Positions 1,703 through 30,032 of a stretch of DNA of 55,351 bases are shown here, piece by piece. Under the pieces are notes generated by a model, which searched no databases, had not been told where the DNA came from, and saw only the letters and a list, made by a program, of their open reading frames with translations. A program made the translations under genes and the position numbers. This stretch comes from an uncultured Gammaproteobacteria bacterium (GTDB lineage Bacteria > Patescibacteriota > Patescibacteriia > Magasanikbacterales > GWA2-37-8), in NCBI GenBank assembly GCA_964356495.1, contig CAYHHR010000003.1, forward strand, positions 1 to 55,351. The letters run 5' to 3'. How positions within the stretch are numbered: the stretch's first letter is position 1; each line of letters starts with the position of its first letter.

Positions 1703-3997
1703 TTATAGCAAGGCCGCCTTCAGAAGCCTTCCTGAATCGAGAAGATAAACTGTCTTGGCCGCGGGGTCAATCACCATACCGGTAGGATTTTTTAAGGAGT
1801 CATTGGTTAGCTGTCCGACCAGGTGGCCGTTTTTTTCAAAAATTATCAGGCGTTTATTTTGCGGATCGAGAATATATAGATAAGGAATATCGGTGTAGGT
1901 CCAAAGCCGGGCGCCGGCGCCGAGTGCCGGATCAAGTCCGGAAAGTGAAAGTGGCTGTGAAACACCCTTGGTAAATCTTGCAATTTGGCCGTTGGTTTTT
2001 GAGACGAAGAGATCGCCGTCGATTGCCAGGTCTGAGCCGTCATTTACCGAGACGCTTTTATCTTTTAGCCACTCGGAACCCTGGCCAAAGCCGGTAGTGA
2101 TTGGATCATGGCGGAAAATTGTCCCGTTTTGGATATCGAGCGTATAAAGCCGGCGGTTGTAAATTACAAAACTGCTGAGGTTTGATTTCTTGGTTGGAAA
2201 AGAAATTTCAACCAACTTCGTGGAAAAGTCGCTTGGTTTCAACTGCATCAATTTATTATCGTCATAAAGAAACAAAGCGTAATCATTTTCTTTTGGCGCT
2301 CCCGCCTCGGAAAATCCACTGATCGATGGATAAGTGGAAATCGTTTTTGCGTCGCCATTCATGACATCATAGACAAATAAAGTCGAGGTGTCAGTGGAGT
2401 ATGCGATCAGTTTGTTTTTTATTTTGATAAGTCCGGCCGCGGCGGAAGGCGACATCGGCAAATTTGCAAGCAGCGTGGTATTGAGCGGAAGCACTTTTCG
2501 TAATTTTGTGCCGAGGTCGTTTATTTGTTTCGCGATCTCGGTACATTCCGGTTGCCGTTCGGCAGAATCGCATGGTAATTTACCGAGCAAGTCGCGGGCG
2601 GTTTTAAATTCCGAAAATGCAAGCTCGTCATTTTTGTAAATTAGCGCGTTCTCGACCGAGCTGTGGCGGTCTTTTAGGTCCTGGAGTGAACGGCTAAATG
2701 CTAAATCAGCAGTGATGACGTTTTGGCGGTGGCGAATATAGATGATGCTGACAAGGAATCCGACCGCTAAAATAATCGACCCGAACAGCATAAATTTTGT
2801 CATCAATGGGAGACGGTAAATGTTTTCTTTGAAGCCGCGCCAGCTTTGCCGCCAATTTTCGATAATCGCGGCGCGCCGGTTATTGCGGTTGAAAATAACG
2901 ACAAAAAGTAGAGCGATCACGCGGACCGAATTATAGAAAAAAGCGTAGATCAAGATCAGGAGGCGCAGCAGTATTTGTCCGATGATTTTTAGAATTAGCC
3001 AGATTTTCGCGAGAATCGGCGCGAGCCGGTCGCCGAGGTTTTGATTTTGGGGACGGCGGTGAGAGCCTTGCAGACGAGTGGAGAGGTGGCTCGACATTAT
3101 CTCGGTCGGTTGTTTGTTCCGTGATTCATTAATTTGGGCGTTATCTTCTTTAACCGACTGTTCATCAAGAATGCCCTTAATATTATTGAGTTTTGGAAAT
3201 AGCGAGGGGGATAGGGTGTTGGCGGTGTCGTCTTCGCGGCGAAAAAGTTTCTGCAACGACGCATTTGACGCTCCTTGTTGAGTGGCTGGACGGATTTTTT
3301 TGGCCGCGGCATCGTTCGCGTCCGGCTGAAACAGATTGATAATCAGGCCGCCGAAGGAGTAACCGTTCTTCAGTTCGCCCAGGACTTTCTCCAGATGCTG
3401 AGCGCTCTGCTGAGCGCTGCGCGTCGTAATTATTTTTTCCAGGCGGTCATGACTGAAGAAATCTATCAGGTGCGGGGTGCCGGCGAAAAGATAATCGTTG
3501 GCGCTGAGTTTTCCCTGAATAATTTGCGAGAACAATCCTTCATCATTCGTCGTATCGATATCTTCGCCGTTGCCGCGGATCAGATCCATTTTTTCATAAC
3601 TATCAAGTCCGTTTTTGTAAAAAAGCAGGAGATGAGGGTTGCCGAAGAAACTAAAAACAATTTCTCCCGGGCGTATAGCGCCCACGATACAATGTAAATC
3701 GCCCCGAGCCTTTTCGAGAGTGAACGCTTCACTGTTTAATTTTTCGAGCACGGCTTCGAATGAATCCTTTTCGTCATTGTTCGGAATTTCATAGTATTCG
3801 TTCTCGGCGCGGTCGATCATTTCCTGCAATTTTTTTATGAAAATAGCGTCGGCGTTATTGACTTCGCACAACGCAAAAAAGTAACCTTTTTCGGCCTCTT
3901 CGGGGGTGGAAGGTTCGGTAATGTGAAGCAGGACGTGTGATAAGTCTTGCTTACCGCCTTCGACAAAAAATTCATTTAGTCTGAGAATTGAATCCAT
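1703..3997 (-). CDS. Large membrane protein: degenerate PP2C/SpoIIE-like N-terminal domain, TM block, C-terminal beta-propeller-like repeats; function unknown
   Basis: 764-aa ORF. Hydrophobic helices at aa ~325-420. C-terminal ~300 aa has repeated 'L(Y/F)(I/V)LD..N..I..F'-type blades. N-terminal region resembles the PP2C layout but lacks the metal-binding Asp motifs. Confidence 0.6.
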   Translation of the reverse strand: MDSILRLNEFFVEGGKQDLSHVLLHITEPSTPEEAEKGYFFALCEVNNADAIFIKKLQEMIDRAENEYYEIPNNDEKDSFEAVLEKLNSEAFTLEKARGDLHCIVGAIRPGEIVFSFFGNPHLLLFYKNGLDSYEKMDLIRGNGEDIDTTNDEGLFSQIIQGKLSANDYLFAGTPHLIDFFSHDRLEKIITTRSAQQSAQHLEKVLGELKNGYSFGGLIINLFQPDANDAAAKKIRPATQQGASNASLQKLFRREDDTANTLSPSLFPKLNNIKGILDEQSVKEDNAQINESRNKQPTEIMSSHLSTRLQGSHRRPQNQNLGDRLAPILAKIWLILKIIGQILLRLLILIYAFFYNSVRVIALLFVVIFNRNNRRAAIIENWRQSWRGFKENIYRLPLMTKFMLFGSIILAVGFLVSIIYIRHRQNVITADLAFSRSLQDLKDRHSSVENALIYKNDELAFSEFKTARDLLGKLPCDSAERQPECTEIAKQINDLGTKLRKVLPLNTTLLANLPMSPSAAAGLIKIKNKLIAYSTDTSTLFVYDVMNGDAKTISTYPSISGFSEAGAPKENDYALFLYDDNKLMQLKPSDFSTKLVEISFPTKKSNLSSFVIYNRRLYTLDIQNGTIFRHDPITTGFGQGSEWLKDKSVSVNDGSDLAIDGDLFVSKTNGQIARFTKGVSQPLSLSGLDPALGAGARLWTYTDIPYLYILDPQNKRLIIFEKNGHLVGQLTNDSLKNPTGMVIDPAAKTVYLLDSGRLLKAALL

Positions 3998-9733: not shown

Positions 9734-10843
9734 ATGACGCGAAAAATTATTTTTGCTTTAGCGGCCTCTCTTTTATTGGTAGGGGCGGGATGTTTAAGTC
9801 TTGGCGGCGGGGCCGCTCCCTCGGCGCTCGGGACATTCCGGTCGGCCGACAAGGGTGAAACTTGGGGTCCGATCAGCACGCTCCTGACTGCTACGGGCGT
9901 AAAGAGTCTCTCGCAAACCAGCGTTTATCGTTTATTTACGGATCCATCCGACGTCAACGCTCTGTACATGGCGACTCGCGGCCAGGGTCTTTATTTTAGT
10001 TATGATCGGGGCGACAGCTGGAGAAGCGTGCCGTTTTTGCAGGGTAAGTTTATCTACAGCCTCGGTGTTGATTCAGCCAATAAGTGCCTGATCTATGTGA
10101 CGGATGGAAGTAATGTTTACAAATCTCTTGACTGTACCCGAACTTGGAATACGGTTTATTTGAGTCAGAACGGCAGTCGCATCGCGGCTCTCGCGCTCGA
10201 TTATTTTAATCGTGGCGTGCTTTTTGCCGGTTTGGAGGATGGCACGATTTTGCAGAGTATAAACGGCGGCAGCAGCTGGCGCACCACTACTTCCACGGGC
10301 GGAATATTGCGCGACCTGGTCGCCGATCCTCAAGTCCCGGGACGCTTTTATCTCGCCAAAGCCAGCTCCGGACTTTTTGTTTCCAATGACAATGGTCAGA
10401 GTTGGGACGATGCGTCCGCCGGTCTTCGAAACTTTAGCGAATCCTTGACGTTCTATCGCTTGATTCTTGATCCCTCGCAGAAAAACAGTATTTACTGGCT
10501 GAGCAAATATGGAATATTTCATTCCGCGGACGCCGGCAAAACTTGGTCGGATTTGAAATTAGTAACGGCCCCGGGAACAGTCAACATTTACAATTTTGCT
10601 TTAAATCCGAAAAATCCCAAGGAGCTGTTTTATACCGGCACCATTTTCAGCGGCCAGCAGGCGTCGGATAGCTTCAGTCTCTCGTCGCCACCCAAAATTT
10701 CCAGTTCTAAATTATATAAATCGATTGATGGCGGCGCGACTTGGTTTAATCGGAAATTACCGAGCGGCGCGATTCCAGTCAACCTTTTAATTTATCCGGA
10801 TGATCCGAGAGTGTTGTTCCTCGGATTTACTACCGCGCAATAA
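9734..10843 (+). CDS. Lipoprotein with BNR/Asp-box beta-propeller repeats
   Basis: Lipobox 'LLVGAGC'. Repeated S/D-x-G-x-S/T-W boxes: 'DRGDSWRSV', 'NGGSSWRTT', 'NDNGQSWDD', 'DAGKTWSDL', 'DGGATWFN'. Confidence 0.75.
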   Translation: MTRKIIFALAASLLLVGAGCLSLGGGAAPSALGTFRSADKGETWGPISTLLTATGVKSLSQTSVYRLFTDPSDVNALYMATRGQGLYFSYDRGDSWRSVPFLQGKFIYSLGVDSANKCLIYVTDGSNVYKSLDCTRTWNTVYLSQNGSRIAALALDYFNRGVLFAGLEDGTILQSINGGSSWRTTTSTGGILRDLVADPQVPGRFYLAKASSGLFVSNDNGQSWDDASAGLRNFSESLTFYRLILDPSQKNSIYWLSKYGIFHSADAGKTWSDLKLVTAPGTVNIYNFALNPKNPKELFYTGTIFSGQQASDSFSLSSPPKISSSKLYKSIDGGATWFNRKLPSGAIPVNLLIYPDDPRVLFLGFTTAQ

Positions 10844-10853
10844 ATATTTATTT

Positions 10854-11405
10854 ATGTTGAACCTTCAAGATTTCAAAGCCGATTTCAAGCGCGCGATCGA
10901 ATTTCTAAAGACCGATATTTCCTCTCTTCGCACCGGACGCGCTACGGGAGCGATGTTGGACAGCATTACGGTCGAAGCCTATGGATCCAGGCAGCCGCTC
11001 AAGGCGGTCGGTACGATTATGGTTGCCGATCCGAAGACGCTGACGATCGAGCCGTGGGACAAGGGCATGCTCGCCGCGATTGAGAAAGGCGTTCGTGATT
11101 CCGGTCTCGGTATCAATCCGGTGAATGACGGTAAGTTGATCCGCCTTTGTTTGCCGGAGCTGACTTCCGAGCGACGCGTGGAGCTTGCTAAGATTTTGCA
11201 TCAAAAATTAGAACAGGCGAAAATCGCGATCCGGAAGATCAGGGAAGACGTCCGTGAACTGATCGGCGAAGAAGAAAAATCCAAATCAATTTCCGAGGAT
11301 GATAAATTTCGTCTGCAGGAAGATTTGGAGAAGATGGTGAAAGAAACAAATGACGAGGTGAAAAAGGTGGGCGAGGCAAAAGAGAAAGAAATTACGACAG
11401 TTTAA
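10854..11405 (+). CDS. frr: Ribosome recycling factor
   Basis: 'LRTGRATGAMLDSITVEAYGS..PLK....I...D..TL.I.PWD' and 'GINP..DG..IR...P.LT.ERR' motifs. ATG at 10854 is preferred to 10800, which overlaps the upstream gene. Confidence 0.9.
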   Translation: MLNLQDFKADFKRAIEFLKTDISSLRTGRATGAMLDSITVEAYGSRQPLKAVGTIMVADPKTLTIEPWDKGMLAAIEKGVRDSGLGINPVNDGKLIRLCLPELTSERRVELAKILHQKLEQAKIAIRKIREDVRELIGEEEKSKSISEDDKFRLQEDLEKMVKETNDEVKKVGEAKEKEITTV

Positions 11406-11435
11406 CGTTGTCATTCCCGTTCGAAAGGAAAGTCC

Positions 11436-11687
11436 ATGATCGACGTGAAATCGCTTTCTGACAGGCAGGCTATCACTCAGCTCGCTCGACAAACGATTTA
11501 CACCAAAGCTCAGTCTAGAGGCATTATCGCGAGGTGGCGGAGACATGTGGCGGAAAATAAGAAAATAGGCTGCCATCTGGTCGCGAATCTTCGCGGTGAA
11601 CGCGATCTCTACTGCGCCGGCTGGAAAAACAGTCGGGAAAGTTTCGTGCGCGTTGGGTTTTTTCTCCTCGGATCGATGAGGCTCTAA
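11436..11687 (+). CDS. Hypothetical 83-aa basic protein (alternatively part of a non-coding transcript)
   Basis: AGGAAAG 5-6 nt upstream of the ATG, with a terminator at 11702-11746. No recognisable motif. Confidence 0.3.
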   Translation: MIDVKSLSDRQAITQLARQTIYTKAQSRGIIARWRRHVAENKKIGCHLVANLRGERDLYCAGWKNSRESFVRVGFFLLGSMRL

Positions 11688-11701
11688 AGAGCCATTCAGA
11701 G

Positions 11702-11746
11702 GGCATCTGGCGCGTCGCGTCCGGTGCCTTCCTTTATTTTTATTGA
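11702..11746 (+). terminator. GC-rich hairpin + T-tract
   Basis: GGCATC..GGCGCG-GTC-CGCGTCC..GGTGCC followed by ttcctttatttttatt. Confidence 0.55.
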
Positions 11747-11755
11747 GTAACAATC

Positions 11756-11785
11756 TTGACAGCAGGGTGTTTTTTTGGCATACTA
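11756..11785 (+). promoter_or_regulatory. Sigma70-like promoter (TTGACA-17/18-CATACT)
   Basis: TTGACA at 11756-11761, with CATACT/ATACTA at 11779-11785. Confidence 0.45.
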
Positions 11786-11848
11786 ACACGTTCCTATACT
11801 ACTTCGCCGCGCTCAAGCGGCTAGTAAGTTCGGAACGCAGAGGACTCA

Positions 11849-12130
11849 ATGTTCTACTCAATCGCGATGTTTGGTCTGATGATGTTTTTTGGTGTGTTGC
11901 TGATGATGCGTCGGATCACTCTCTCGGCGACCATGGCCAGCCTTCTCTTCATGTACGCACTGTACTCATTCCACATGGGAGCCGCCCTCGATCTGTCACA
12001 TGAGTGGCGCGGAGTCGTGGTTCGATTAGTCTTTGGTTGCGTCGGAATCGCGTCGTTTGTCCTTGCGGGGATCGTGTTCGTTCTTCGTTCCCGGGAGCTC
12101 GACGCTATTCGCGCGAGAACCTCGATCTGA
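11849..12130 (+). CDS. Small three-TM membrane protein, GC-rich
   Basis: 93 aa with three hydrophobic helices. 'agagga' RBS 6 nt upstream. Own promoter and terminator. Confidence 0.55.
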   Translation: MFYSIAMFGLMMFFGVLLMMRRITLSATMASLLFMYALYSFHMGAALDLSHEWRGVVVRLVFGCVGIASFVLAGIVFVLRSRELDAIRARTSI

Positions 12131-12150
12131 GGTCGTACGATTCTTTTAGT

Positions 12151-12192
12151 GCCCCGAACACCAATTCAACGGTGTCGGGGCTCTTATTTTTT
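12151..12192 (+). terminator. Rho-independent terminator
   Basis: GCCCCGA(A)CACC / GGTGTCGGGGC stem followed by ctcttatttttt. Confidence 0.7.
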
Positions 12193-12249
12193 AGATAATA
12201 TTTATCGGTCGAACCTTTAATTGGATTCCGCCCAAAAGTGTTGATCCGT

Positions 12250-12278
12250 TTGACATATTGGCTAATTTTTGCTATAAT
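12250..12278 (+). promoter_or_regulatory. Perfect consensus sigma70 promoter (TTGACA-17-TATAAT)
   Basis: TTGACA at 12250-12255, 17-nt spacer, TATAAT at 12273-12278. The leader contains hairpin GTTCCGAG-aaaaa-CTCGGAAC, and AGGAG lies 6 nt before the ATG at 12365. Confidence 0.7.
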
Positions 12279-12364
12279 AATGCGTTCCGAGAAAAACTCG
12301 GAACCCGCCTAAAGGCCGCGGAACGGCTTGTTATTTACAACCACGATCGCAACAGGAGTTACGC

Positions 12365-13075
12365 ATGTCCACAAGACGCCGTATCTTGATTTCCATAATT
12401 TCCGTCGTCTTCACCGTCGGCTGCGCTCACCAGGCGGCCTCGCCGACCAATGGCAGGCCAGCGGCCGAGCAGAGCGTATTCCCCATCGCCATACCTAAGT
12501 CGCTTCCCGAAGTCAAGATCGGGGGGGGGGTAATAGCCACGAAATACGCGGCGTGCACTGCCGTCTACGTCGCTCCTCACCTAATGGCCACTAGCGCGAC
12601 GGCTTTCCCGCGCACTGTCGAGGGGACGACGGCCTACAATGTCGCTGGTATCATCCTCCGGGATGGCGACTATCGGCTTAAACCCGTCGACGTGGTTTAC
12701 GAAGACGAGGGTAATGGTATTGCCATCATCAGGACCGAGGAAGTTGGGACACCTGTCATATTGAATGGCTTGGGTTACCCGATCGGGAGGAAGCTCATTG
12801 TGCAGTCGTTCACCTACAAAACCGCTTTGTTTCGCGGTCAGCTTCTCCAGCCTGTCTGGAATGTCGCGTTAGCCGCGCCTGCCGTCGAGCCATACACCGG
12901 CGCCAACGCATTCGCGCGATTCCGCATCGACGTCATCGTGGAAGATGGCGCGTGCGGCGCTCCGGTATTCGACGAAGACGGACGGCTTGCCGGCATCGTC
13001 CATGAACGCCACAGCGGCTACACGTCCGTGATCAGTGCATTAGCCATCGCATCCGCTTTGAAAGGAGTACCGTAA
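12365..13075 (+). CDS. Lipoprotein with chymotrypsin/trypsin-like fold and Cys at the nucleophile position (3C-like 'GxCG')
   Basis: Lipobox 'FTVGC'. 'EDGACGAPVFDEDGRLAGIVHE' aligns with the S1 'GDSGGP...G.L.GI' motif but has Cys197. Candidate His72 ('APHLMAT') and acidic residues 113-115 ('VYEDEGNGIAIIR'). GC-rich. Confidence 0.6.
   Translation: MSTRRRILISIISVVFTVGCAHQAASPTNGRPAAEQSVFPIAIPKSLPEVKIGGGVIATKYAACTAVYVAPHLMATSATAFPRTVEGTTAYNVAGIILRDGDYRLKPVDVVYEDEGNGIAIIRTEEVGTPVILNGLGYPIGRKLIVQSFTYKTALFRGQLLQPVWNVALAAPAVEPYTGANAFARFRIDVIVEDGACGAPVFDEDGRLAGIVHERHSGYTSVISALAIASALKGVP
12521..12530 (+). repeat. G10 homopolymer inside the lipoprotein CDS (encodes Gly53-Gly55)
   Basis: Ten consecutive G read directly (gatc gggggggggg taat). 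In frame as written. Confidence 0.9.
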
Positions 13076-13767
13076 TGAAGAACCATCCGAATCTTATACT
13101 CTTGTCAGGACTCATCGCGCTGTGGTCGGCATCTTCCTGCAGGCCGAACAATCCCGTAGACAAGGATTACGACAGCGCCGGCGGCCAGTGCCGTTCATAC
13201 GACTGGCTGGCGGGCGCCCGGGAGTACGGCATGACTCCGCGTTATGACGTCAACCCGACTATCGTCACGCTGGAAGGGATCAAAATCGATCCTTCCTCGA
13301 ACACCGTTTCGGGGGAAGCCGTCGACTGCATGGTCGACAAGATCGAACAGTGCCTCCTGCGTAAATTCGGCAATCCGCCGCGCATTCCGCCAGAGGTCAT
13401 GAAAGACGCCTACTGCGTCGACGCGACCTTCGCGTTCCCTATTCCGCGGGCATGCGTAACCGTGAAAGTCGTCGACGACTGGCGTCTGAATTGCGACGGT
13501 ACGCAACAGCTCCTCAAGTGGAGGCCGCCGGACGATTCCGGCTGTCTTGCCAAGGGGTTGACTCCCACGCCCGACTGCCCCTGTAGCTGGCGAGGCGGCG
13601 TCCAGGACGAACACACGGTGGTCGTCACGCCAAGCTTTTACCTCTTCCCGGACTGGTTCATACGCGTCTACACCGGCTGTCTCGACCCGTGGGGTAGTCC
13701 CGCGCTTGCCGAGTGCGCTTCACCGCTCACCGGCCCGCTCGACATGACGCCCACCTGCGTCAGATAG
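13075..13767 (+). CDS. Cys-rich lipoprotein (12 Cys after the lipobox Cys), unknown function
   Basis: Lipobox 'WSASSC'. TAATG overlap with the upstream gene implies translational coupling. GC-rich. No family recognised. Confidence 0.6.
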   Translation: MKNHPNLILLSGLIALWSASSCRPNNPVDKDYDSAGGQCRSYDWLAGAREYGMTPRYDVNPTIVTLEGIKIDPSSNTVSGEAVDCMVDKIEQCLLRKFGNPPRIPPEVMKDAYCVDATFAFPIPRACVTVKVVDDWRLNCDGTQQLLKWRPPDDSGCLAKGLTPTPDCPCSWRGGVQDEHTVVVTPSFYLFPDWFIRVYTGCLDPWGSPALAECASPLTGPLDMTPTCVR

Positions 13768-13796
13768 TGTTTCAAGTAGTCGCATAATCGCATCGA

Positions 13797-13833
13797 GGGC
13801 ATCAGCGCAATACGCTGGTGCCCCCTTTCATTT
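13797..13833 (+). terminator. Rho-independent terminator of the GC-rich operon
   Basis: GGGCATCAGCG / CGCTGGTGCCC stem (one G-U pair), 5-nt loop, then cctttcattt. Confidence 0.65.
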
Positions 13834-13836
13834 ATA

Positions 13837-13865
13837 TTGACAGAAACCCGTTTTAGCAGTATTAT
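13837..13865 (+). promoter_or_regulatory. Sigma70-like promoter (TTGACA-17-TATTAT)
   Basis: TTGACA at 13837-13842 and TATTAT at 13860-13865. The ORF track's TTG 'start' at 13837 is this -35 box. Confidence 0.6.
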
Positions 13866-13890
13866 TTCTCTAATTCTTGGTCTTTTTTAT

Positions 13891-14301
13891 ATGAAAATTA
13901 TCTTGGCGATAGCATCCGGACTGATTCTGCTTGGGGCAGGTTGTGCAAGTCAAATCGCACAGCTATATTCCAAAAATACGACGGAATCATATTCCTGGAA
14001 CGCTTATGATCGAGTGACTGCGACTTCGACGGTAGTTACCTTCGCTCATCCGTCCGGCTATGCTATCAAGGAGAATGGCAGCCTCGCCAGTACCGAAAAA
14101 ATCATTATCGGCGGCCTCTTTGGAAGAATCGAAATTTATAATCAGGATTTTTACAACACCGGTAATAATGATTTGCTCCCTGCTCGGCCGAATGAAACAT
14201 TCAAAAAAGGAAATTTTTACATATATTTATTCCACAACAAGTCTGATAAACCAACCAAAGACGAATTGATCAAAATTGTAAATTCTATAAAGATAAAATG
14301 A
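13891..14301 (+). CDS. Small lipoprotein, unknown function
   Basis: 'MKIILAIASGLILLGAGC' signal peptide and lipobox. ATG at 13891. Confidence 0.6.
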   Translation: MKIILAIASGLILLGAGCASQIAQLYSKNTTESYSWNAYDRVTATSTVVTFAHPSGYAIKENGSLASTEKIIIGGLFGRIEIYNQDFYNTGNNDLLPARPNETFKKGNFYIYLFHNKSDKPTKDELIKIVNSIKIK

Positions 14302-14302
14302 T

Positions 14303-15676
14303 ATGTCCGATCAAAATCTGATGGAGAAAATTATTTCATTTTGCAAACGCCGCGGTTTTGTTTTTCCCGGCAGTGAAATTTATGGCGGTTTGTCCGCTTC
14401 GTATGACTACGGTCCGCTTGGCGTTGAATTAAAAAATAATATAAAAAAGGCGTGGTGGAAGGCGATGGTGCAAAAAAGAAATGATGTCGTTGGGTTAGAC
14501 TCGGCTATTTTAACTCCGAAAATTGTTTGGGAAGCAAGCGGACATTTACAGAGTTTCCACGACCCTTTGGTTGAATGTAAAGTTTGCCACCATCGTTTTC
14601 GCGCCGATCATTTGTTGGAGGCGAAGCAAGCCGAGCCCGGTTATATGAAGGAGAAGCCGGTTGAAATAAGTGAAATCCCGTGTCCAGACTGCGGCGGCGC
14701 GTTGAGCGAGCCGAAAAATTTTAATTTGCTGATGAAGACGGAGCTCGGTTCGGTTGAGGGCCAAAAGGAGGACGCCTACCTCCGCGGTGAGACTTGTCAG
14801 GGTATTTATCTTGACTATTTGAGCGTGAAAGACGTGATGCGACAAAAGTTGCCGTTCGGAATCGCGCAGGTAGGAAAAGCGTTTAGAAATGAAATCACTA
14901 CCAAAAATTTTATTTTTCGCATGCGTGAATTTGAACAGATGGAAATGCAATTTTTTGTAAATCCTAAAGACGCGGAGAAACATTTTAATTATTGGAAGGA
15001 ACAGCGCATGAGTTGGTACAAGAGCCTTGGCATGAAAGAGGAAAATATACGTTTCCGTCAGCACGCGACCGATGAACGCGCACACTACGCGAAGGATGCT
15101 TGGGACATCGAGTACAATACTCCCTGGGGCGGATGGAAAGAGATGGCTGGAGTCCATAACCGAGGTGATTGGGATCTGTCTCGCCATGGTAAATATGCCG
15201 GCGTCGATATGACTTACACTGATTTGGAAGGCGAAAAATATATTCCGTATATCGTTGAGACCTCGGATGGCGCCGATCGGGCGACGCTGATGTTTTTGAT
15301 TGATGCATTTGCGGAAGTCGAGACCAGGAGCGGGGACGAAAACGCAAAACATGAAACAGAGTTAGTTCTTCGTCTGCACAAAGATTTAGCCCCGATAAAA
15401 GTTGCTATTTTGCCGCTTTCCAAAAAAGAGCCTTTGCAAAAAATAGCCAAAGAAATCCAATCAAGCATCTGGAACGAATTAATGACTCAATATGATGAGA
15501 CTGGCTCGATCGGCAAACGCTATCGCCGCCAGGATGAGATCGGCACGCCGTTTTGCGTGACGGTTGATTTCGATTCATTGGAAGATAAAATGGTGACGGT
15601 GAGAGAACGCGATAGCATGAAGCAGGAGAGAATCGCGATTGTCGACCTCAGAAAATATTTGTTAGAGAAATTTTAA
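14303..15676 (+). CDS. glyQS: Glycine--tRNA ligase (alpha2 dimeric type)
   Basis: 'RRGFVFPGSEIYGG....YDYGPLG..LKNNIK..WW' N-terminus, class II motifs, and C-terminal anticodon-binding 'GKRYRRQDEIGTPFCVTVD'. Confidence 0.95.
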   Translation: MSDQNLMEKIISFCKRRGFVFPGSEIYGGLSASYDYGPLGVELKNNIKKAWWKAMVQKRNDVVGLDSAILTPKIVWEASGHLQSFHDPLVECKVCHHRFRADHLLEAKQAEPGYMKEKPVEISEIPCPDCGGALSEPKNFNLLMKTELGSVEGQKEDAYLRGETCQGIYLDYLSVKDVMRQKLPFGIAQVGKAFRNEITTKNFIFRMREFEQMEMQFFVNPKDAEKHFNYWKEQRMSWYKSLGMKEENIRFRQHATDERAHYAKDAWDIEYNTPWGGWKEMAGVHNRGDWDLSRHGKYAGVDMTYTDLEGEKYIPYIVETSDGADRATLMFLIDAFAEVETRSGDENAKHETELVLRLHKDLAPIKVAILPLSKKEPLQKIAKEIQSSIWNELMTQYDETGSIGKRYRRQDEIGTPFCVTVDFDSLEDKMVTVRERDSMKQERIAIVDLRKYLLEKF

Positions 15677-19935: not shown

Positions 19936-20007
19936 GGGCCTGTAGTTTCAATGGTAAAACTCTCGTCTCCAAAACGAGCGTTCTCGGTTCGAATCCGAGC
20001 GGGCCTG
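19936..20007 (+). tRNA. tRNA-Trp (CCA anticodon), no encoded 3' CCA
   Basis: Acceptor GGGCCTG/CGGGCCT (with G-U pairs), D-arm GTTT/AAAC, anticodon stem CTCGT/ACGAG with loop CTCCAAA, T-arm CTCGG-TTCGAAT-CCGAG. Confidence 0.85.
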
Positions 20008-20013
20008 CACTGT

Positions 20014-20047
20014 AAATTTATGGCTTAGCATAGCCATAAATTTTTTT
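20014..20047 (+). terminator. Rho-independent terminator after tRNA-Trp
   Basis: AAATTTATGGCT / AGCCATAAATTT stem followed by a T-tract. Confidence 0.75.
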
Positions 20048-20150
20048 AACCTACATCGGAGTTAGAACCAAATGACCTTGGCGAATATTCTAGACATTTT
20101 TAAAATATGGTGTTATGCTTCAATCAATATTATAATTTTAGGATAATTTG

Positions 20151-20750
20151 ATGGCTTCTATGCGTACTTTAGTTTTAGCATCGACATCACCACGAAGGAA
20201 GTCTATTTTAACTAATTTAGACCTTCCTTTTGTTGTCGCGTCTCCTAAATATCATGAAGATAATTCATTACAGATTTTGCCTGCTGACTTAGTACAACAT
20301 TTGGCTGTTGGCAAGGCTCGTTCACTTATGACAGATTTCCCAGATGCTATTATTATTGGATCAGATACATTGGTAGAATTTAAAGGAAAAATTTTACCTA
20401 AGCCTCGCAGTATAAAAGAAGCAGTCGACATGCTACTGTCGTTGAGCGGCACTTCCCATTCCATTCTAACTGGGTTTGCACTATTTGATACGAAGTCTGG
20501 TCAAGTAGATAGTGGCACACAAAAAACAGTCATCACCTTTAGAGAGATTAAATTGGAGGAAGCCCAGGCGTATGTAAAACGTGAAGACGTACTTGGTGTT
20601 GCTGGAGCGTATGACCACGAGCACCTCGGCGCAGTGTTTGTTGAAAATTTGAATGGCGATTTCTATGGTTCCGTTGGTTTTCCGTTATATAAAATCGCAG
20701 AATCTTTGAAAAATAATTTTGAGATGGACCCTCTTTTTCTCGACCGATAA
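20151..20750 (+). CDS. maf: Maf-like nucleoside triphosphate pyrophosphatase
   Basis: 'LVLASTSPRRKSIL', 'IIGSDT', 'KP.S..EA..ML..LSG..H.I.TG' and 'GAYDHEHLGAVFVE...GD...VVG(F)P' motifs. Confidence 0.85.
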   Translation: MASMRTLVLASTSPRRKSILTNLDLPFVVASPKYHEDNSLQILPADLVQHLAVGKARSLMTDFPDAIIIGSDTLVEFKGKILPKPRSIKEAVDMLLSLSGTSHSILTGFALFDTKSGQVDSGTQKTVITFREIKLEEAQAYVKREDVLGVAGAYDHEHLGAVFVENLNGDFYGSVGFPLYKIAESLKNNFEMDPLFLDR

Positions 20751-20761
20751 ATTATTTCTTT

Positions 20762-21388
20762 ATGACACTCAACAATAATGAAAAAATTAAGAAAATAATG
20801 GAGAAAAGTGAACAATTTGTCGTTATTTGCGGACCAAGCGGTAGCGGTAAGACAATGGTTGCAGAATATCTTATTAGTAATTACGGTTTTGCTGAACTCC
20901 CATTTTTAACGACTCGTGATTTAAGGCCTGGAGAAAAAGAAATTGGTGCTTGTCAAATTACGCGGGATGAATTCATTGAACAATCGCAAGGTGGTAATAT
21001 TTTCTTGGGAGTTAGAAGCTATGGTAACGCTTATGGTTATAATTTAGATCTCATTTACAGTCAAACGATGAATGGTCAACGAATCGTTGTTGAAGCTCCT
21101 GCATCATATTTAACAACGGATGTTTCTTATTTTTTGCCAAAAAGTACTATAATTGGCGTTATTCCCTTAACCCCAAATGAAACTGAAAGACAACTGGAAG
21201 CACGGGGTTTAAATGCTGCGGTTGACCAAAGGTTGCGCGTGCTTAATTGTGAAATTGAAAAAGAACATATAGCATATTCCTGTGGCACAATTGATGTCAC
21301 GCCTATTTTGCCGACTGATGGCAGTCCTGAACACACTCTTCGTCAAGTTGATCGTTTGATGGAAAAACGTGGTTTCAGTAAAGTATGA
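20762..21388 (+). CDS. P-loop kinase of the guanylate kinase / PhnN-like family (divergent)
   Basis: 'ICGPSGSGKT', then 'TTRDLRPGEKEIG' and '...NAYGY', the guanylate-kinase layout. Substrate unknown. Confidence 0.6.
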   Translation: MTLNNNEKIKKIMEKSEQFVVICGPSGSGKTMVAEYLISNYGFAELPFLTTRDLRPGEKEIGACQITRDEFIEQSQGGNIFLGVRSYGNAYGYNLDLIYSQTMNGQRIVVEAPASYLTTDVSYFLPKSTIIGVIPLTPNETERQLEARGLNAAVDQRLRVLNCEIEKEHIAYSCGTIDVTPILPTDGSPEHTLRQVDRLMEKRGFSKV

Positions 21389-22656
21389 AGAAACTAATTA
21401 GGTTTCTTCATACTTTTTTCTTATTTTTAAACCTCACTTCTTTTGACTCTCGTTTACGAACGGGTCGTATTTTGGGCCGGTCATGGTCGCCATTAAGATT
21501 TAGCGCGCGTTTTTTTTCGTTTTGCTTTGGAAAACAAAATTACAATAATATTCTTCTCCATGCCAAAAATATACAAAGGGATCAAGAATTGGCTATTGCA
21601 GACTCAGGCACATTTAATTTTTCTCGATATATTGAAAAAAAATTGCTCCAAAAAATTGTAAATATTTTGAATTTGCCTTTTGCTGAGTTTTCCGGATACC
21701 TCACTACGGGAGCGACTGAAGCAAATATTTACTCTCTTTGGGTGGCACGAGAGTGGGCAAACAAACTAGTTGAAGCACGTTCTGAAAAAAAGATATATTG
21801 GCTTATTCCTAAGAATGTTCACTACTCAATAATTAAGGCACTACGTTTGCTGGCCATTGAAGGCCAACAAAATAATGAGGTAATTCTTATTGATCTTGAC
21901 CAGAACGGTCGTGCTAATCTTCAGCAGATCATTCAATATGTTGAACTCGCTCATACCCATGAAAATCCCGTGGTTCTAGTTATGACTGCCATGTCAACAG
22001 AATACGGATCTATTGATCCGCTCAAAGAGGTCGATCAGTACATTGCTTCTGCAGCGATTAAAAACTTCCATTTACATGTCGATGCGGCGTTTTCAGGATT
22101 TTTTCTGCCATTTGCTAAAGGTTATGAAAACATTTTTTCTATTCAATCGTTATCATCAATTTCGTTAGATTTTCACAAGACCATTGGCGGTCCTGTTGGC
22201 GTTGGGGCAGTAGTTATGCGTTCTGGGTTCGAAAAATTTGCGAAAGTCGAAGCCTCTTATCTTAAGGATGGTGCCGACTTTACGTTAGTAGGCAGCAGAA
22301 AAGGCATAGACGCGCTAGCGATTTATAGTATTTTTGATATATATGACATTGATGATTTTAAGAAGGAAGTAGCCGCGATGCAGACCAAGACGCAATTTTT
22401 AGCTAATAGTTTAGCTCGTTTGTCATTTATTAGATTATATTATGAACCAACATTTAATTATATTGTTTTTTCTTTAGATAATTTAAGTCCAGATAAAGAA
22501 TTAATTATTAGAAAAATATTTGCTAAATTTTCGGTTTCATCATCAGAAGTCGAAAGTGACGGTAAAAAAATTTCTTTATTCAAAATAGTTATCCGACAAG
22601 ACCACAGTGTTAGGTTATTACGCAAATTCGTGCTTGAATTAGCAGCACTTAGATAG
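21385..22656 (+). CDS. Group II PLP-dependent amino-acid decarboxylase (MfnA/GadB-like)
   Basis: 'TTGATEANIYSLWVARE', 'HVDAAFSGFFLPF' and 'SISLDFHKTIGGPVGVGAVVMR' (PLP-Lys). ATGA overlap with the upstream kinase gene. Confidence 0.75.
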   Translation: MKKLIRFLHTFFLFLNLTSFDSRLRTGRILGRSWSPLRFSARFFSFCFGKQNYNNILLHAKNIQRDQELAIADSGTFNFSRYIEKKLLQKIVNILNLPFAEFSGYLTTGATEANIYSLWVAREWANKLVEARSEKKIYWLIPKNVHYSIIKALRLLAIEGQQNNEVILIDLDQNGRANLQQIIQYVELAHTHENPVVLVMTAMSTEYGSIDPLKEVDQYIASAAIKNFHLHVDAAFSGFFLPFAKGYENIFSIQSLSSISLDFHKTIGGPVGVGAVVMRSGFEKFAKVEASYLKDGADFTLVGSRKGIDALAIYSIFDIYDIDDFKKEVAAMQTKTQFLANSLARLSFIRLYYEPTFNYIVFSLDNLSPDKELIIRKIFAKFSVSSSEVESDGKKISLFKIVIRQDHSVRLLRKFVLELAALR

Positions 22657-22657
22657 T

Positions 22658-23767
22658 ATGACTCAAAAAAATGAGTATTATAAAATTGGCCAGTTGCTCA
22701 ATCCGCTTCAGAGAAGCATTACAACATTATATCCGCAAGGAAGTAAGTGTAGAATCGTTGTTCCCGCTCGTGTTGATACCTTTTTGTGCCATCACCACTA
22801 TTTTGTGCATCCGCTTCGACCGCAAGTCTACCCGGTAAATTCTATTAACTTTGTTCTTAACCAATTAACCGAAGCAGAAGTAGCGATACGATCGGATAAA
22901 AAAATTGTTATCACTGCTCTCGAGACCAGAAAGCCGTTGATCGAGCATGTGGTTAAAATTATGCAACAGACCCTAGGGTTTGATACGGGATTTTCCGTTA
23001 TAGCAAAAAACAATCACAATACTTTGCATGGCGGACTAGGTTCGTCCTCCACACTAATGACTGCAGTAGCTCAGGCTATAAATATAATCATGGGTAACCA
23101 TTTAACGGTTCAGGAAATGACAAAATTATTAGCACAGAATTATGGAGAGGAAACCAATAAAACTGGTATGCTTTCTACAATGGCTAGTATTGGCGGTGCT
23201 TCTGCATCGGCGTTGAGCGGTAAATCTTTGATAATTATTGGCGGCGAAGCCGAGATATGGATTAAAGAGGACTTGCCCGTAGGTTATGAGGCAGTTTTGC
23301 TCTATCCGAAGAACATTAAAGCCATATCGGGTATAGTTGATATGCAGCTTTATAAAAAAGGGTTTGAGTTATTTGAGCGAATTGGGTATGAGTGGGGTGA
23401 CATCAAGGAAAATATTTTAAGATCAAAAATAATACCGGCGATTTGTAAAGAGGACTACTCAGTGTTGTTTAAGTCAATTAATATGTATACTATTGGAGCC
23501 TATGGCGATATTCCGCAGTATTTTAGATCACGTTGGCTATCGCACAACATTTTTTTTGATGAGTTTATATACACCATATTTTTAAGACTCTTTGCAGCCG
23601 TACCGATGGAGGAAAATTGTTTTTTTGTCTCATCCGGCGGTCCTTTACTTGTGATAATTACTAACCGATTTAACGATGTGATAGCTGCACTCGGCAACAT
23701 AACTGATAATTTTTCAGTTGATAGAGTTTCGTTGGCAAGAAGCGGGCCCCAATTAGAGATTGAATAG
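22658..23767 (+). CDS. GHMP-kinase-superfamily protein (beta-RFAP synthase / pantoate kinase-like)
   Basis: 'LHGGLGSSSTLMTAVAQAIN' matches the GHMP motif II (GLGSS). 1-nt gap from the decarboxylase gene. Confidence 0.55.
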   Translation: MTQKNEYYKIGQLLNPLQRSITTLYPQGSKCRIVVPARVDTFLCHHHYFVHPLRPQVYPVNSINFVLNQLTEAEVAIRSDKKIVITALETRKPLIEHVVKIMQQTLGFDTGFSVIAKNNHNTLHGGLGSSSTLMTAVAQAINIIMGNHLTVQEMTKLLAQNYGEETNKTGMLSTMASIGGASASALSGKSLIIIGGEAEIWIKEDLPVGYEAVLLYPKNIKAISGIVDMQLYKKGFELFERIGYEWGDIKENILRSKIIPAICKEDYSVLFKSINMYTIGAYGDIPQYFRSRWLSHNIFFDEFIYTIFLRLFAAVPMEENCFFVSSGGPLLVIITNRFNDVIAALGNITDNFSVDRVSLARSGPQLEIE

Positions 23768-23824
23768 TAATGGATTTTTTTAACAACCTAAATTGAATAA
23801 ATTCGGTCAATTACTGTATGTTAT

Positions 23825-24271
23825 ATGGAAAAAGAAATTAAAAAAATTTACCTAGGAGTTTACGGCGTGTATCTAAAAGGCGATAAGGTTTTAGTAATCA
23901 AGAAAGCGCGAGGTCCATATACCGGAAAATATGACCTACCGGGTGGTGGACTTAATTTTGATGAGACCGCAAGCCAATGCCTCGAAAGAGAAATGATGGA
24001 AGAAACCAATACAAAGGTACTAAAGAAAACTTTAATCGGGATAAATGAGTATCAATGCCAATACCCTAGAGAGGATGGCAGCATCAAGGACTTCCACCAT
24101 TTGGGAGTGTACTACCGGGTTAATCTTCTGATCGAAAATCTTAAGACTACGCCAGATGGTCAGGATTCAAACGGAGCCGTTTTCGTGCCAGTTTCAGAGC
24201 TTAATGAAAAAAATACGTCACCGATTTGCCTCCCGATGATTAAACAAGCACTGGATGTGAAAGTTTCGTAG
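23825..24271 (+). CDS. Nudix hydrolase
   Basis: Nudix box 'GGGLNFDETASQCLEREMMEETN' (Gx5Ex7REUxEExGU). Confidence 0.85.
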   Translation: MEKEIKKIYLGVYGVYLKGDKVLVIKKARGPYTGKYDLPGGGLNFDETASQCLEREMMEETNTKVLKKTLIGINEYQCQYPREDGSIKDFHHLGVYYRVNLLIENLKTTPDGQDSNGAVFVPVSELNEKNTSPICLPMIKQALDVKVS

Positions 24272-24362
24272 TACCGACTGCATACCTATTAATTAACCAA
24301 ATCTGACGCCGCGCTATAATCGGCATTGTTCCTGGTTCTGACTTCATCCACGATGCCCTGCG

Positions 24363-24389
24363 AAGACCAGTTTATGCTGGTCTTTTTTG
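24363..24389 (+). terminator. Rho-independent terminator
   Basis: AAGACCAG-tttatg-CTGGTCTT followed by TTTTT. Confidence 0.75.
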
Positions 24390-24438
24390 TTGTAGTAATA
24401 TAGAATATTAAAACCCGCACTTTATAAATTGTATTAAT

Positions 24439-25254
24439 ATGCCAGAAAATTCATTTGAAGCAATCAAAAGGGTAGACGATAATGGAAGGGAATATTGGTC
24501 ATCGCGTGAATTGGCTAAGGTTCTAGAATATCCATATTATCGTAAATTTCTTAGTGTAATCGATAAGGCGAAAGTTGCTTGCGAAAATAGCGGCGGAGTT
24601 ATCCACAGCCATTTTGTCCATATGGACGAAATGGTTCTAATCGGGTCTGGTGCGGAAAGGCCCATTGATACAATGTGTCTTTCACGATATGCCTGTTATC
24701 TGATCGTTCAAAATTCTGATCCAACTAAAGTAATCGTAGCAAAAGGTCAAACATATTTCGCGATTCAAACGCGAAGACAAGAAAAAGCTGACAATCTGAT
24801 CGAAGATAATAATCGTATTTTTTTGCGTGAGGAAATGAAAAAGCACAACACGAGCTTGATGCAGACTGCGGCCATGGCCGGTGTTGAAAATTATGCGATT
24901 TTTCAAAATTATGGTTATAAAGGTTTGTATGGCGGGCTGACAATGCAGGATATTCATGTGAAAAAACATTTGACGAAATCGCAGAAAATTCTTGATCACA
25001 TGAACAGCGAGGAGTTGGCTGCCAATTTATTTCGCGCTACTCAAGCTGGTGCAAAAATAAAGCGGGAAAATATTAGAGGTCAAGTAGATGCAAATTTGGC
25101 ACATTACGAGGTCGGTCAAAAAGTTAGAAATACGATTGCAAATTTAGGTGGTACGATGCCAGAAGAATTACCGACCCCGGATGCGATAGGTAAAGCTCAA
25201 ACGAGAATAAAGAAATCAAGGCAAGTGAAGAAAATTGAGACTGGCAGAGAATAA
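24439..25254 (+). CDS. dinD: DNA-damage-inducible protein D (DinD)-like protein
   Basis: 'FE.IK......G.E.WSSRELAK.L.Y..YR.F..VI.KAK.ACENSG......HF......V.IGSGA.R......LSRYACYL.VQN.DP.K...A.GQTYFAIQTRRQE' matches my memory of E. coli DinD almost motif for motif. Confidence 0.75.
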   Translation: MPENSFEAIKRVDDNGREYWSSRELAKVLEYPYYRKFLSVIDKAKVACENSGGVIHSHFVHMDEMVLIGSGAERPIDTMCLSRYACYLIVQNSDPTKVIVAKGQTYFAIQTRRQEKADNLIEDNNRIFLREEMKKHNTSLMQTAAMAGVENYAIFQNYGYKGLYGGLTMQDIHVKKHLTKSQKILDHMNSEELAANLFRATQAGAKIKRENIRGQVDANLAHYEVGQKVRNTIANLGGTMPEELPTPDAIGKAQTRIKKSRQVKKIETGRE

Positions 25255-25263
25255 AAATCGCAT

Positions 25264-26022
25264 ATGAAATTAATCTCACTTAACACTTGGGGAGCTCGAG
25301 CAGGTCTGGATAATCTGCTCGATTTTTTTAAAAAACATCGCGATGCGGATATATTTTGTTTGCAGGAAATCTGGGATGGCGGCGAAGAGCGGATCGCGGG
25401 AGTAAATTTTAAAGGGGTTGATTGTAAGCAGGTCGAGCCGCGATTACTTAGAAAAATTCAAGACGTTCTGCCGGATCACGTCGTGTATTTCAGGCCGCAT
25501 TATTTTGACTTTTATGGTTTGGCGTTATTTGTGAAAAAAGATTTAAATATTATTGAGGAGGGGGAGTTGTTCGTTTATAAAGAACGCGGCTATTATTCAT
25601 CGGACGCGGTAGGAAATCATGCTCGTAATATTCAATACGTGAAGGTCGCCATTCCGCGTGGCATACGCGTCATTGTTAATTTCCACGGCCTGTGGAACGG
25701 CCAAGGAAAAGATGACTCGGCTGACCGCCTGCTTCAGTCTGATAATATTTTGCGTTTTCTTGCCGCCCTTCCTCACCCGGTCATTTTATGCGGAGATTTT
25801 AATCTGTTGCCTGAGACGGAAAGTATAAAAAAACTTGAGTCTTTTGGATTGCGGAATCTTATTAAAGTAAATAATATTGCTTCGACAAGAACCAGTTTTT
25901 ATAAAAAAGAACACCGATTTGCTGATTATACGTTTGTGAGCAAGGATATTAGCGTCGTCGATTTTAAAGTATTGCCGGATGAGGTATCGGACCATAATGC
26001 CATGCAGCTTAGTTTTGAATAA
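25264..26022 (+). CDS. Endonuclease/exonuclease/phosphatase (EEP) family protein
   Basis: 'LNTWG', 'DIFCLQE', 'CGDFN' and C-terminal 'SDHNA' motifs. Confidence 0.8.
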   Translation: MKLISLNTWGARAGLDNLLDFFKKHRDADIFCLQEIWDGGEERIAGVNFKGVDCKQVEPRLLRKIQDVLPDHVVYFRPHYFDFYGLALFVKKDLNIIEEGELFVYKERGYYSSDAVGNHARNIQYVKVAIPRGIRVIVNFHGLWNGQGKDDSADRLLQSDNILRFLAALPHPVILCGDFNLLPETESIKKLESFGLRNLIKVNNIASTRTSFYKKEHRFADYTFVSKDISVVDFKVLPDEVSDHNAMQLSFE

Positions 26023-26064
26023 CCGTCATTCATCGCTAAAACAGCCATTTTTTTGGCCTTAAGG

Positions 26065-26093
26065 TTGACAAAAGGCTGATTTTGTAGTATAAT
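26065..26093 (+). promoter_or_regulatory. Perfect consensus sigma70 promoter (TTGACA-17-TATAAT)
   Basis: TTGACA at 26065-26070 and TATAAT at 26088-26093. Confidence 0.7.
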
Positions 26094-26130
26094 TCTGCGT
26101 TAGTGTACGTTAATTATTGAGCCTTTTTAC

Positions 26131-27162: not shown

Positions 27163-27185
27163 TCTTTTAATTTGATGGTTATAAA

Positions 27186-27214
27186 ATAATGGCTAATTCA
27201 GCCATTATTTTTTT
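27186..27214 (+). terminator. Rho-independent terminator
   Basis: ATAATGGCT-aattc-AGCCATTAT followed by TTTTTT. Confidence 0.8.
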
Positions 27215-27596
27215 GTTAAACACATCGGTGCGCGCCCCTATATTTTATGGTATACTGACCCAATGATTCGAAAGATAATGAATTATACAAGCTCAATATT
27301 AATTTGTCGAAAATCATGCGCACTTTCAATTCCCGCCTCTTCAAAAATTTAGTTGGATGTTTTTCCGGAAATAATCTGATCTGGCACGTTTCCGCCATCG
27401 TCTTAACGTATGTGTTAGTCGCAGGCGGATTTGATTGGTGGTATTTTGAAGCGACACGGAGTGCGGTACTGCAGTCGATATTGTTTCCGGCCGCGATGAT
27501 CGGCGGGGTGGTAGGCCGGAGTTTTTTGAAGAAATAGTAGTATATTCGTACTATAATCTAAATGATTACGAAAATTACTAATCTAATAAATTCTAT

Positions 27597-27992
27597 ATGG
27601 ATGCGGTAAATTGGTATTCACAACTTATTAAACCAATCTGGTCGCCACCGGCATGGCTTTTTGGACCGGTGTGGACGTTTTTATATGTATTGATCGCCAT
27701 ATCGTTTGGCAAGGTTTTTTTGATGGCCTGGAAAAAACAAATTTCCCCCGTGATTGCCATTCCTTTTGCGCTCAACCTATTTTTTAATTTTATTTTTACC
27801 TCAATTCAATTTGGACTTAAAAATAATTTATTGGCTGCGGCGGATATTTTGCTCGTTGTTGGTACGCTTATCTGGGCAATGATAATCATTTGGCCGCGCG
27901 CCAGGTGGGTGGTCTATGCTAATATTCCTTATCTCGTCTGGAGTATTTTCGCTACCGCATTGCAATTAACAATTACTTATCTTAACCGTTGA
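27597..27992 (+). CDS. tspO: TspO/MBR tryptophan-rich sensory protein (short form)
   Basis: 'WY..L.KP.WSPP.W.FGPVWT.LY.LIA' N-terminal signature. Four to five TM helices. Confidence 0.75.
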   Translation: MDAVNWYSQLIKPIWSPPAWLFGPVWTFLYVLIAISFGKVFLMAWKKQISPVIAIPFALNLFFNFIFTSIQFGLKNNLLAAADILLVVGTLIWAMIIIWPRARWVVYANIPYLVWSIFATALQLTITYLNR

Positions 27993-27996
27993 AAGT

Positions 27997-30030: not shown

Positions 30031-30032
30031 GT

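Follow-up and report, generated by a model that had tools for sequence, protein, structure and literature searches.

Organization of the locus

The stretch of DNA analysed here, the 55,351-nucleotide (nt) contig CAYHHR010000003.1 of assembly GCA_964356495.1 (hereafter the window), is a metagenome contig, and we focus on a cassette that lies between its frr (10800-11405) and glyS (14303-15676) genes and encodes two lipoproteins in overlapping reading frames. The cassette consists of two transcription units. The first contains a promoter-like site at 11756, a small open reading frame (ORF) for a 93-residue hydrophobic protein and, at 12151-12192, a hairpin followed by a T-tract. The second contains a promoter at 12250, an 86-nt leader, ORF 12365-13075, ORF 13075-13767 and a terminator at 13797-13833. 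The last two ORFs, hereafter the pair, share a TAATG overlap, and each of their products has a lipobox; the translational coupling of two lipoproteins that a preliminary description had read from the sequence is thus upheld. We refer to these products as the first protein and the partner. The stretch 11700-13900 is also present in groundwater metagenome runs, and the gene set of the host is monoderm-style and includes MreB, an RND pump and a sortase accompanied by a DUF11 protein.

A trypsin fold with a degenerate active site

The first protein matches Pfam Trypsin_2 (PF13365) at residues 64-211 over the full 144-position profile (31.8 bits against a cut-off of 27.6, E 2.9e-7), and its AlphaFold2 (AF2) model, computed with 29 homologues, is a double beta-barrel (predicted local distance difference test, pLDDT, 80.6; predicted template modelling score, pTM, 0.78). 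Foldseek returned 1216 PDB matches at E<=1e-3, of which the best 50 are all trypsin-fold, with RsgI9-S1C, Staphylococcus Esp, HtrA1, MucD, DegS and DegQ in the lead (E ~1e-9, TM 0.55-0.6). The chymotrypsin-like (PA) fold proposed in the preliminary description is thus borne out. The closeness to picornain 3C and NIa that it had also seen is not: there is no viral 3C protease among the best 50 of the 1216 matches, and the structural neighbours are bacterial or cellular S1B and S1C proteases. The family is small, with only 43 clusters at 50% identity matching its profile at E<=1e-3 among 1.84 billion representatives. The lipobox, MSTRRRILISIISVVFTVGC, was identified by inspection and conservation, and its Cys20 is kept in 37 of 39 members. 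A PDB search with the single sequence gave spurious CBS-domain matches alone, on the PVFDEDGRLAGIV stretch, and a profile search was needed.

Three comparisons bear on the catalytic residues. First of all, the family profile (hmmsearch) places Cys197 against the nucleophile Ser of HtrA1 (GNSGGP) and Gly118 against its catalytic Asp (DIALIK). Second, hhalign against canonical relatives (probability 99.4%, E 6e-22) equates Thr79 with the His, Gly118 with the Asp and Cys197 with the Ser of the triad. Third, the most distant members, reached by exhaustive search, retain the TAAHC, DLALL and GDSG motifs. Cysteines and triad columns were tabulated in 60 family sequences, with counts that ignore kinship, and among the 45 members that carry Cys197 a single one has His in the His column and none has Asp in the Asp column. 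The assignment of Cys197 to the nucleophile position therefore stands, since its column matches the Ser both of HtrA1 and of the canonical relatives. On the other hand, the triad columns hold Thr79, Gly118 and Cys197 where S1 serine peptidases have His-Asp-Ser, which makes the protein a non-peptidase homologue by the canonical criterion, and the general-base His of the PA(C) enzymes (chymotrypsin His57 position) is likewise represented by Thr79.

The preliminary description had instead assembled a 3C-like triad from Cys197, His72 and an acidic residue at 113-115. His72 and Asp114 do exist, yet they lie outside the triad positions. In the AF2 model His72 forms part of a two-residue beta-hairpin turn (strands 61-70 and 73-77), and the hairpin ends at 79, so that His72 is at the end of the hairpin far from the active site; it is kept in 34 of the 45 Cys197 members, and the other 11 have Y, R, N, D, G or E at this position. 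Alignment and hairpin topology thus rule this triad out. The retained trypsin fold contains a degenerate active site, and the first protein is most likely a pseudoprotease; the evidence favours what the preliminary description had offered as its fallback. We are confident that the protein is neither a canonical serine protease nor a canonical 3C-type protease. Its resemblance to 3C we read as convergence, through a Ser-to-Cys change in a lineage of bacterial Trypsin_2 proteins whose outgroups carry TAAHC, DLALL and GDSG.

Cysteine pattern and a putative disulfide

Position 64 of the first protein corresponds to chymotrypsin Cys42 ('CGG...') and position 80 to Cys58 ('HC'). Cys42-Cys58 is the classical disulfide that floors the S1' pocket, with position 42 beside the catalytic centre (PMC6048020, PMC13165411). 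Cys64 and Cys197 are both present in 45/60 family members and both absent from 8/60. Cys197 is always accompanied by Cys64 (45/45; Cys197 without Cys64, 0/60), and 7/60 members have Cys64 without Cys197, six of which carry Cys80, a residue that never occurs together with Cys197 (0/60). The association of Cys64 with Cys197 has a Fisher p of 2.5e-6, uncorrected for relatedness. Sequence P0001 contains exactly three cysteines, namely the lipobox cysteine, Cys64 and Cys197, and the same holds for most Cys197 members. The simplest reading of this pattern is that Cys42 changed its partner from Cys58 to position 195 after His57 and Cys58 had been lost, and the pattern suggests a Cys64-Cys197 disulfide across the dead active site. 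We consider it reasonably probable that this bond is formed and that the first protein is a non-catalytic binding subunit that pairs with the partner on the external side of the membrane.

Several points weigh against this. The covariation counts are not phylogenetically independent, and P0036 keeps Cys64 without any partner cysteine. Furthermore, the window protein and 24/45 Cys197 members have a His at position 213 (chymotrypsin Ser214), adjacent to the former triad, so that a non-canonical Cys-His pair is conceivable. The first protein could then be an active cysteine protease in which either His213, next to the vacated Asp102/His57 space, or His216 acts on Cys197 as a non-canonical general base, with the partner as its substrate or inhibitor. 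Cys-His dyads that lack an acid residue are functional in some PA-fold viral enzymes, and the GxCG context of the oxyanion loop is intact around Cys197 at the nucleophile position. However, 21 of the 45 Cys197 members have R, F, N, Y, L, S, T, I or A in place of His213, no His is conserved alongside Cys197, and the strict covariation of Cys197 with Cys64 is what is expected of a disulfide. The coupled homologue at locus L011, moreover, has Gly64 and Ala197 and keeps the overlap with a normal partner, which argues that the chemistry of residue 197 is not what sustains the partnership. An exposed free thiol would also be prone to oxidation beside an extracellular partner with six disulfides. An active protease is, in our estimate, very unlikely. 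Nothing relevant on a 42-195 disulfide, or on cysteine proteases of PA fold in bacteria, came up in a search of the literature.

In one subclade (L003 25-648, L004 1230-2006), the first protein is longer by about 20 residues at its C-terminus, and this extension includes an extra Cys (...SSCRVMVDPNDPLVR).

The partner lipoprotein

The partner precursor contains 13 cysteines, the lipobox Cys22 and 12 in the mature protein; the 12 of the preliminary description thus hold for the mature protein, the count for the precursor being one higher. Its lipobox, ...LWSASSC, was recognized by inspection and conservation, and Cys22 is invariant. Across homologues, cysteines are gained or lost together in the pairs 85-228, 114-202 and 39-127, which fits a fully disulfide-bonded extracytoplasmic domain in an oxidising compartment. 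The invariant residues are mostly polar or Cys and fall in the motifs CDGTQQ, KG, CPCRWR and D..R..TGC.NPW.

All family and fold searches came back empty, in agreement with the earlier statement that the partner belongs to no recognisable family. Pfam (all 12 members), NCBIfam, PHROGs, PADLOC and a PDB profile search gave no match. Foldseek of the AF2 model (pLDDT 83.5) against PDB and BFVD gave a best E of 1.7-2.4, with scattered collagenase and matrix metalloproteinase noise, and there is no HExxH in the partner. Searches by tblastn with P0005 and with P0014, a homologue from a phage contig, found no match in 50,697 deposited phage genomes. We take the partner to be a compact domain, with six disulfides predicted and a fold that matches no known one.

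Distribution, coupling and phage homologues

The two ORFs overlap, by 1 to 62 nt, in six genomic contexts: the window, L001/L002, L003, L004, L010 and L011. The overlap is 62 nt in the L003/L004 subclade and 1-4 nt elsewhere. The neighbours of the pair differ by locus and include a glycosyltransferase and an NTP-transferase, NIF3 and RuvA, a transketolase, IMPDH and TsaD; since they are unrelated each time, the pair moves as a unit. Distant homologues of the pseudoprotease also occur without the partner (L005, L007; one Patescibacteria metagenome-assembled genome and one Binatia metagenome-assembled genome), and a homologue of the partner stands alone in the cellular contig L009.

Partner homologues that keep the family motifs are furthermore encoded in phage contigs, L008 and four IMG/VR contigs. 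In L008 and L096, a lipobox-bearing partner homologue lies two genes 3' of phrog_10356, annotated as 'virion structural protein', and in L096 both of these genes are downstream of a tape-measure gene. In L097, the partner homologue follows a gene for a 933-residue protein, the C-terminal part of which matches phrog_10356, with one small ORF between them. No homologue of the pseudoprotease was found in IMG/VR.

This distribution bears on a further explanation, in which Cys64 and Cys197 form the functional centre of the first protein, either as a redox-active pair in the former peptide-binding cleft that oxidises or shuffles the six disulfides of the partner or as a metal site as in MamO. These two cysteines are the sole conserved reactive residues of the family, they are located at the cleft, and the pseudoprotease is co-translated with a 12-Cys client; MamO, a trypsin-fold pseudoprotease with a new chemical function, provides a precedent (PMC4794232). 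The pair at L011, however, has neither cysteine, yet its partner retains 11 mature Cys. Stand-alone members of the family hold the Cys pair with no partner gene nearby, and the partner homologues of phages and of L009 occur without a pseudoprotease. We therefore judge a redox or metal centre to be unlikely.

At L010, directly upstream of the pair (2404-3054), a cysteine-rich lipoprotein carries a HEMGHLIGIWDH motif and is metzincin-like (HExxHxxGxxH-type). A real protease may thus accompany the pseudoprotease pair in some genomes.

Composition and origin of the cassette

The pair (12365-13767) has a G+C (GC) content of 0.598 against 0.446 for the remaining window, and it is the highest-GC 1403-bp stretch of the 55-kb window, about 3.3 standard deviations up (window mean 0.450, standard deviation 0.046). 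The composition jump reported in the preliminary description, whose hand counts of 38/60, 28/60 and 21/60 are exact, thus persists when GC is computed properly. GC at third codon positions (GC3) of the three cassette ORFs (0.677, 0.686 and 0.757) gives the top three values among the 51 ORFs of the window, the others having a mean of 0.457, a standard deviation of 0.091 and a maximum of 0.616; the values of the pair correspond to z = 2.5-3.3. The nearest homologues of the pair are 53% and 70% identical and lie on contigs of 57-69% GC. Deviant composition is thus combined with a promoter and a terminator of the cassette's own, as in islet- or moron-like elements.

It could be argued that the cassette is not foreign, its high GC reflecting the amino-acid make-up and codon choice of the two genes at a locus that is ancestral in the lineage. 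The pair is indeed richer in GC than its own flanks in four other loci as well (L001, L003, L004 and L010, by 2-7 points), so part of its excess may be intrinsic to these genes, and GC at second positions (GC2) is also raised (z about 2). Searches for flanking direct repeats, att sites, an integrase or a nearby tRNA at the cassette were negative, and no related genome without the cassette, that is, with an empty site, was found. These points count against acquisition. On the other hand, the jump here is 15 points and is greatest at synonymous third positions, the adjacent small ORF shows the same anomaly although it is not homologous, and GC drops from 0.61 to 0.39 in 100 bp at the downstream edge. 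Together with the neighbourhood of the pair, which differs in every genome, and the phage-borne relatives of the partner, this favours acquisition: the cassette was probably taken up horizontally from a GC-richer donor, and an ancestral origin is unlikely.

Synteny does not allow an insertion to be proved, as the 80 metagenome GlyRS loci compared have identities of at most 60% and none has frr upstream. A contig joint that connects 11344 to 14342 in four runs was considered as an empty site; one side of it is 44 nt long and A-rich, it would fuse the coding sequences of frr and glyS, and it is probably a spurious alignment.

The preliminary description had seen in the cassette foreign genes on local expression signals. 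The anomalous composition, the self-contained unit and promoters of the type used by this genome agree with this, but a sigma-70 consensus is too universal to prove that the promoters are of local origin.

A possible mode of action

The explanation that we prefer overall, and hold to be moderately probable, is that of a horizontally acquired operon for a pseudoprotease and an effector lipoprotein. Such an operon would give rise to two co-translated lipoproteins attached to the cell membrane on its external side. With Thr79 in place of the general-base His and Gly118 in place of the Asp, the first of these would be non-catalytic. A structural bond between Cys197 and Cys64 would substitute for the ancestral Cys42-Cys58 and bridge the dead active site, and the protein would serve as a binding or scaffold subunit by way of its remnant peptide-binding cleft. 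The partner, with its six disulfides, would be the likely effector, as its invariant polar residues suggest. An envelope-directed role is suggested by the position of its relatives 3' of phage tail genes, and candidate roles would be blocking or modification of a surface receptor, or action on the cell wall. An effector of phage ancestry with such a role, for example in receptor masking or cell-wall action, is drawn from phage gene position and from analogy, and we put it forward tentatively, as one possibility that may well prove wrong.

A more elaborate picture would combine several of these elements, with the cassette as a domesticated, phage-derived envelope module in which the former catalytic centre of a trypsin-fold scaffold has become a Cys-Cys redox site or a Cys-His site that matures, gates or activates the six-disulfide lipoprotein of new fold. 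The phage cousins of this lipoprotein, encoded beside tail genes, would share its surface target, with superinfection exclusion or the masking of receptors in ultra-small bacteria of groundwater as examples. We regard this as a long shot.

Comparison with known systems

Among catalytic relatives, HtrA/DegP (S1C), V8/Esp (S1B) and Trypsin_2 proteins share with the first protein the double beta-barrel, sequence homology and an extracytoplasmic location. With respect to HtrA/DegP and V8/Esp, the first protein keeps the GxxG context of the oxyanion loop and the 'LALIRT' strand, but it has Thr-Gly-Cys for His-Asp-Ser, lacks a PDZ domain and carries a lipid anchor. Picornain 3C, NIa and the 3C-like enzymes of PA(C) share the PA fold and a Cys in GxCG at the nucleophile position; they retain the canonical His, however, where the first protein has Thr79.

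The trypsin-fold pseudoproteases already known, MamO (PMC4794232) and the S1C-like sensor domain of RsgI9 (PDB 7sjy), come closest to the first protein in their working; in both, a bacterial trypsin fold with a degenerate site is put to non-catalytic use. RsgI9-S1C is its top PDB match in both structure and sequence, and has Thr in the nucleophile column. For neither of the two is a Cys at the nucleophile position or a Cys42-to-195 pairing described, they are domains of membrane proteins and not lipoproteins, and they have no coupled cysteine-rich partner. What sets the first protein apart is thus that it is a lipoprotein, with an apparent 42-195 disulfide and an apparently obligate coupling to a cysteine-rich protein of novel fold.

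For the partner, the likeness is to phage systems. T5 Llp and the Cor-type superinfection-exclusion proteins are phage surface lipoproteins encoded beside tail or receptor-binding genes, and in three phage contigs partner homologues with a lipobox come after tail structural genes. This is an analogy of gene position, and the partner has no sequence or fold similarity to Llp or Cor. With phage morons, the window cassette shares its own promoter, its own terminator and its deviant GC, but it lies between housekeeping genes and not in a prophage.

Had the 3C-type reading been true, the first protein would be one of the rare cellular cysteine proteases with a chymotrypsin fold. The evidence points elsewhere, to a small, previously undescribed lineage of Trypsin_2 pseudoproteases in which a Cys replaced the nucleophile Ser and apparently acquired the disulfide partner of the lost Cys58. 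The lineage would be a clear case of a dead enzyme that was stabilised and reused, and it serves as a warning that 'GxCG' in a PA fold is not proof of a cysteine protease. The part most worth following up is the partner family with its phage connection; this family is common to uncultivated bacteria and to the tail-gene regions of uncultivated phages. The partner is thus a candidate factor in phage-host surface interaction, in organisms for which very little is known of phage defence or attachment.

Expression signals and features of the cassette

The features of the cassette are collected in Table 1. The perfect and near-perfect promoters described earlier were recovered at 12250 and 11756, as were the clean terminators at 12151 and 13797. 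On the forward strand of the window there are five promoter matches of at least 11/12, including that at 12250, all of them intergenic and with 17-nt spacers, against 0.58 per strand in shuffled sequence. Near-consensus promoters with 17-nt spacers thus precede four other window genes, and the promoters of the cassette are of the type that this genome uses. An Rfam scan of 11300-14400, which includes the leader, gave sub-threshold noise only, and a search for RNA-seq runs returned none. The 93-residue ORF was considered as a conserved third component and rejected, as it has no counterpart beside the pair in any other locus.

Table 1. Sequence features of the cassette and codons of interest in the first protein
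Feature	Position	Strand	Remark
Promoter-like site, TTGACA-17-CATACT, 10/12, TG ahead of -10	11756-11784	+	5' of the small membrane ORF
Small ORF, 93 residues, hydrophobic, GC3 0.677	11849-12130	+	Composition as in the cassette
Terminator-like hairpin (bulged 11-bp stem), then T-tract	12151-12192	+	-22.3 kcal/mol, z -5.2; hairpin 12151-12181
Perfect sigma-70-type promoter, TTGACA-17-TATAAT, extended -10 TG, 12/12	12250-12278	+	
Leader, 86 nt, with 8-bp hairpin (12284-12304) and AGGAG ribosome-binding site 8 nt ahead of ATG	12279-12364	+	
Lipoprotein of 236 residues (lipobox Cys20), trypsin-fold domain with degenerate triad	12365-13075	+	Read as a pseudoprotease
Cys64 codon	12554-12556	+	Chymotrypsin Cys42 position; proposed disulfide partner of Cys197
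His72 codon, CAC	12578-12580	+	
Thr79 codon	12599-12601	+	Canonical catalytic His column
Gly118 codon	12716-12718	+	Canonical catalytic Asp column (Asp in DIALIK of HtrA1)
Cys197 codon, TGC	12953-12955	+	Canonical nucleophile Ser column (Ser in GNSGGP of HtrA1)
Lipoprotein of 230 residues, 12 Cys besides lipobox Cys22, no match to a known family or fold	13075-13767	+	
Operon-closing terminator, 11-bp G+C-rich stem-loop, T-rich tail	13797-13833	+	z -4.4; hairpin 13797-13823

Some strain-level variation is seen in the groundwater runs: four runs have GT inserted after 12171, within the first terminator's loop, and two have A inserted after 12291, within the loop of the leader hairpin. The ORF of the first protein contains a tract of ten G (12521-12530), which spans codons Gly53-Val56 in a loop modelled with low confidence. 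No homopolymer in the 55-kb window is longer, and no other run of G or C reaches 8. Of the contigs from four runs at this position, two end in or at the tract and two cross it unchanged. A slip of one nucleotide in either direction would truncate the first protein and, via coupling, probably reduce expression of the partner, and the tract is a possible phase-variation switch.

Flanking genes and other regions of the window

Upstream of the cassette, about 350 nt from the frr stop to the cassette promoter (11406-11755) contain no convincing gene and gave no Rfam match; the only ORFs are one of 83 residues on the forward strand and one of 167 residues on the reverse strand, which overlaps frr. 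This segment could be a gene remnant at the edge of an insertion. Further upstream, the gene at 9734-10843 encodes a BNR/sortilin-repeat lipoprotein. Downstream, the TTG start listed at 13837 for the gene at 13837-14301 is the -35 box of an 11/12 promoter (TTGACA-17-TATTAT), and translation probably starts at ATG 13891 instead, yielding a 136-residue lipoprotein with an LLGAGC lipobox; the gene has a GC content of 0.39 and no family match. With a lipoprotein gene on either side, the cassette thus lies within a run of surface-protein genes.

A low-GC island at 20000-34000 (GC 0.31-0.42 against 0.45-0.50 around it), 3' of a tRNA-Trp gene, is a heterogeneity opposite in direction to that of the cassette. 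It contains a DpnII restriction-modification system, with a DNA methylase (29224-30030) and a DpnII-type restriction endonuclease (30410-31330), as well as genes for a Bro-N protein (24439-25254), an S24 LexA-like peptidase (32943-33701) and an EEP nuclease. The island looks like a second acquired region that is independent of the cassette.

Finally, in the region 37185-41276, a fusion of HMA, DsbD_2 (a CcdA-like thiol-redox membrane domain) and cupredoxin domains adjoins a heavy-metal P-type ATPase with an HMA domain, which shows that extracytoplasmic redox chemistry of thiols and metals is within the capacity of this organism.

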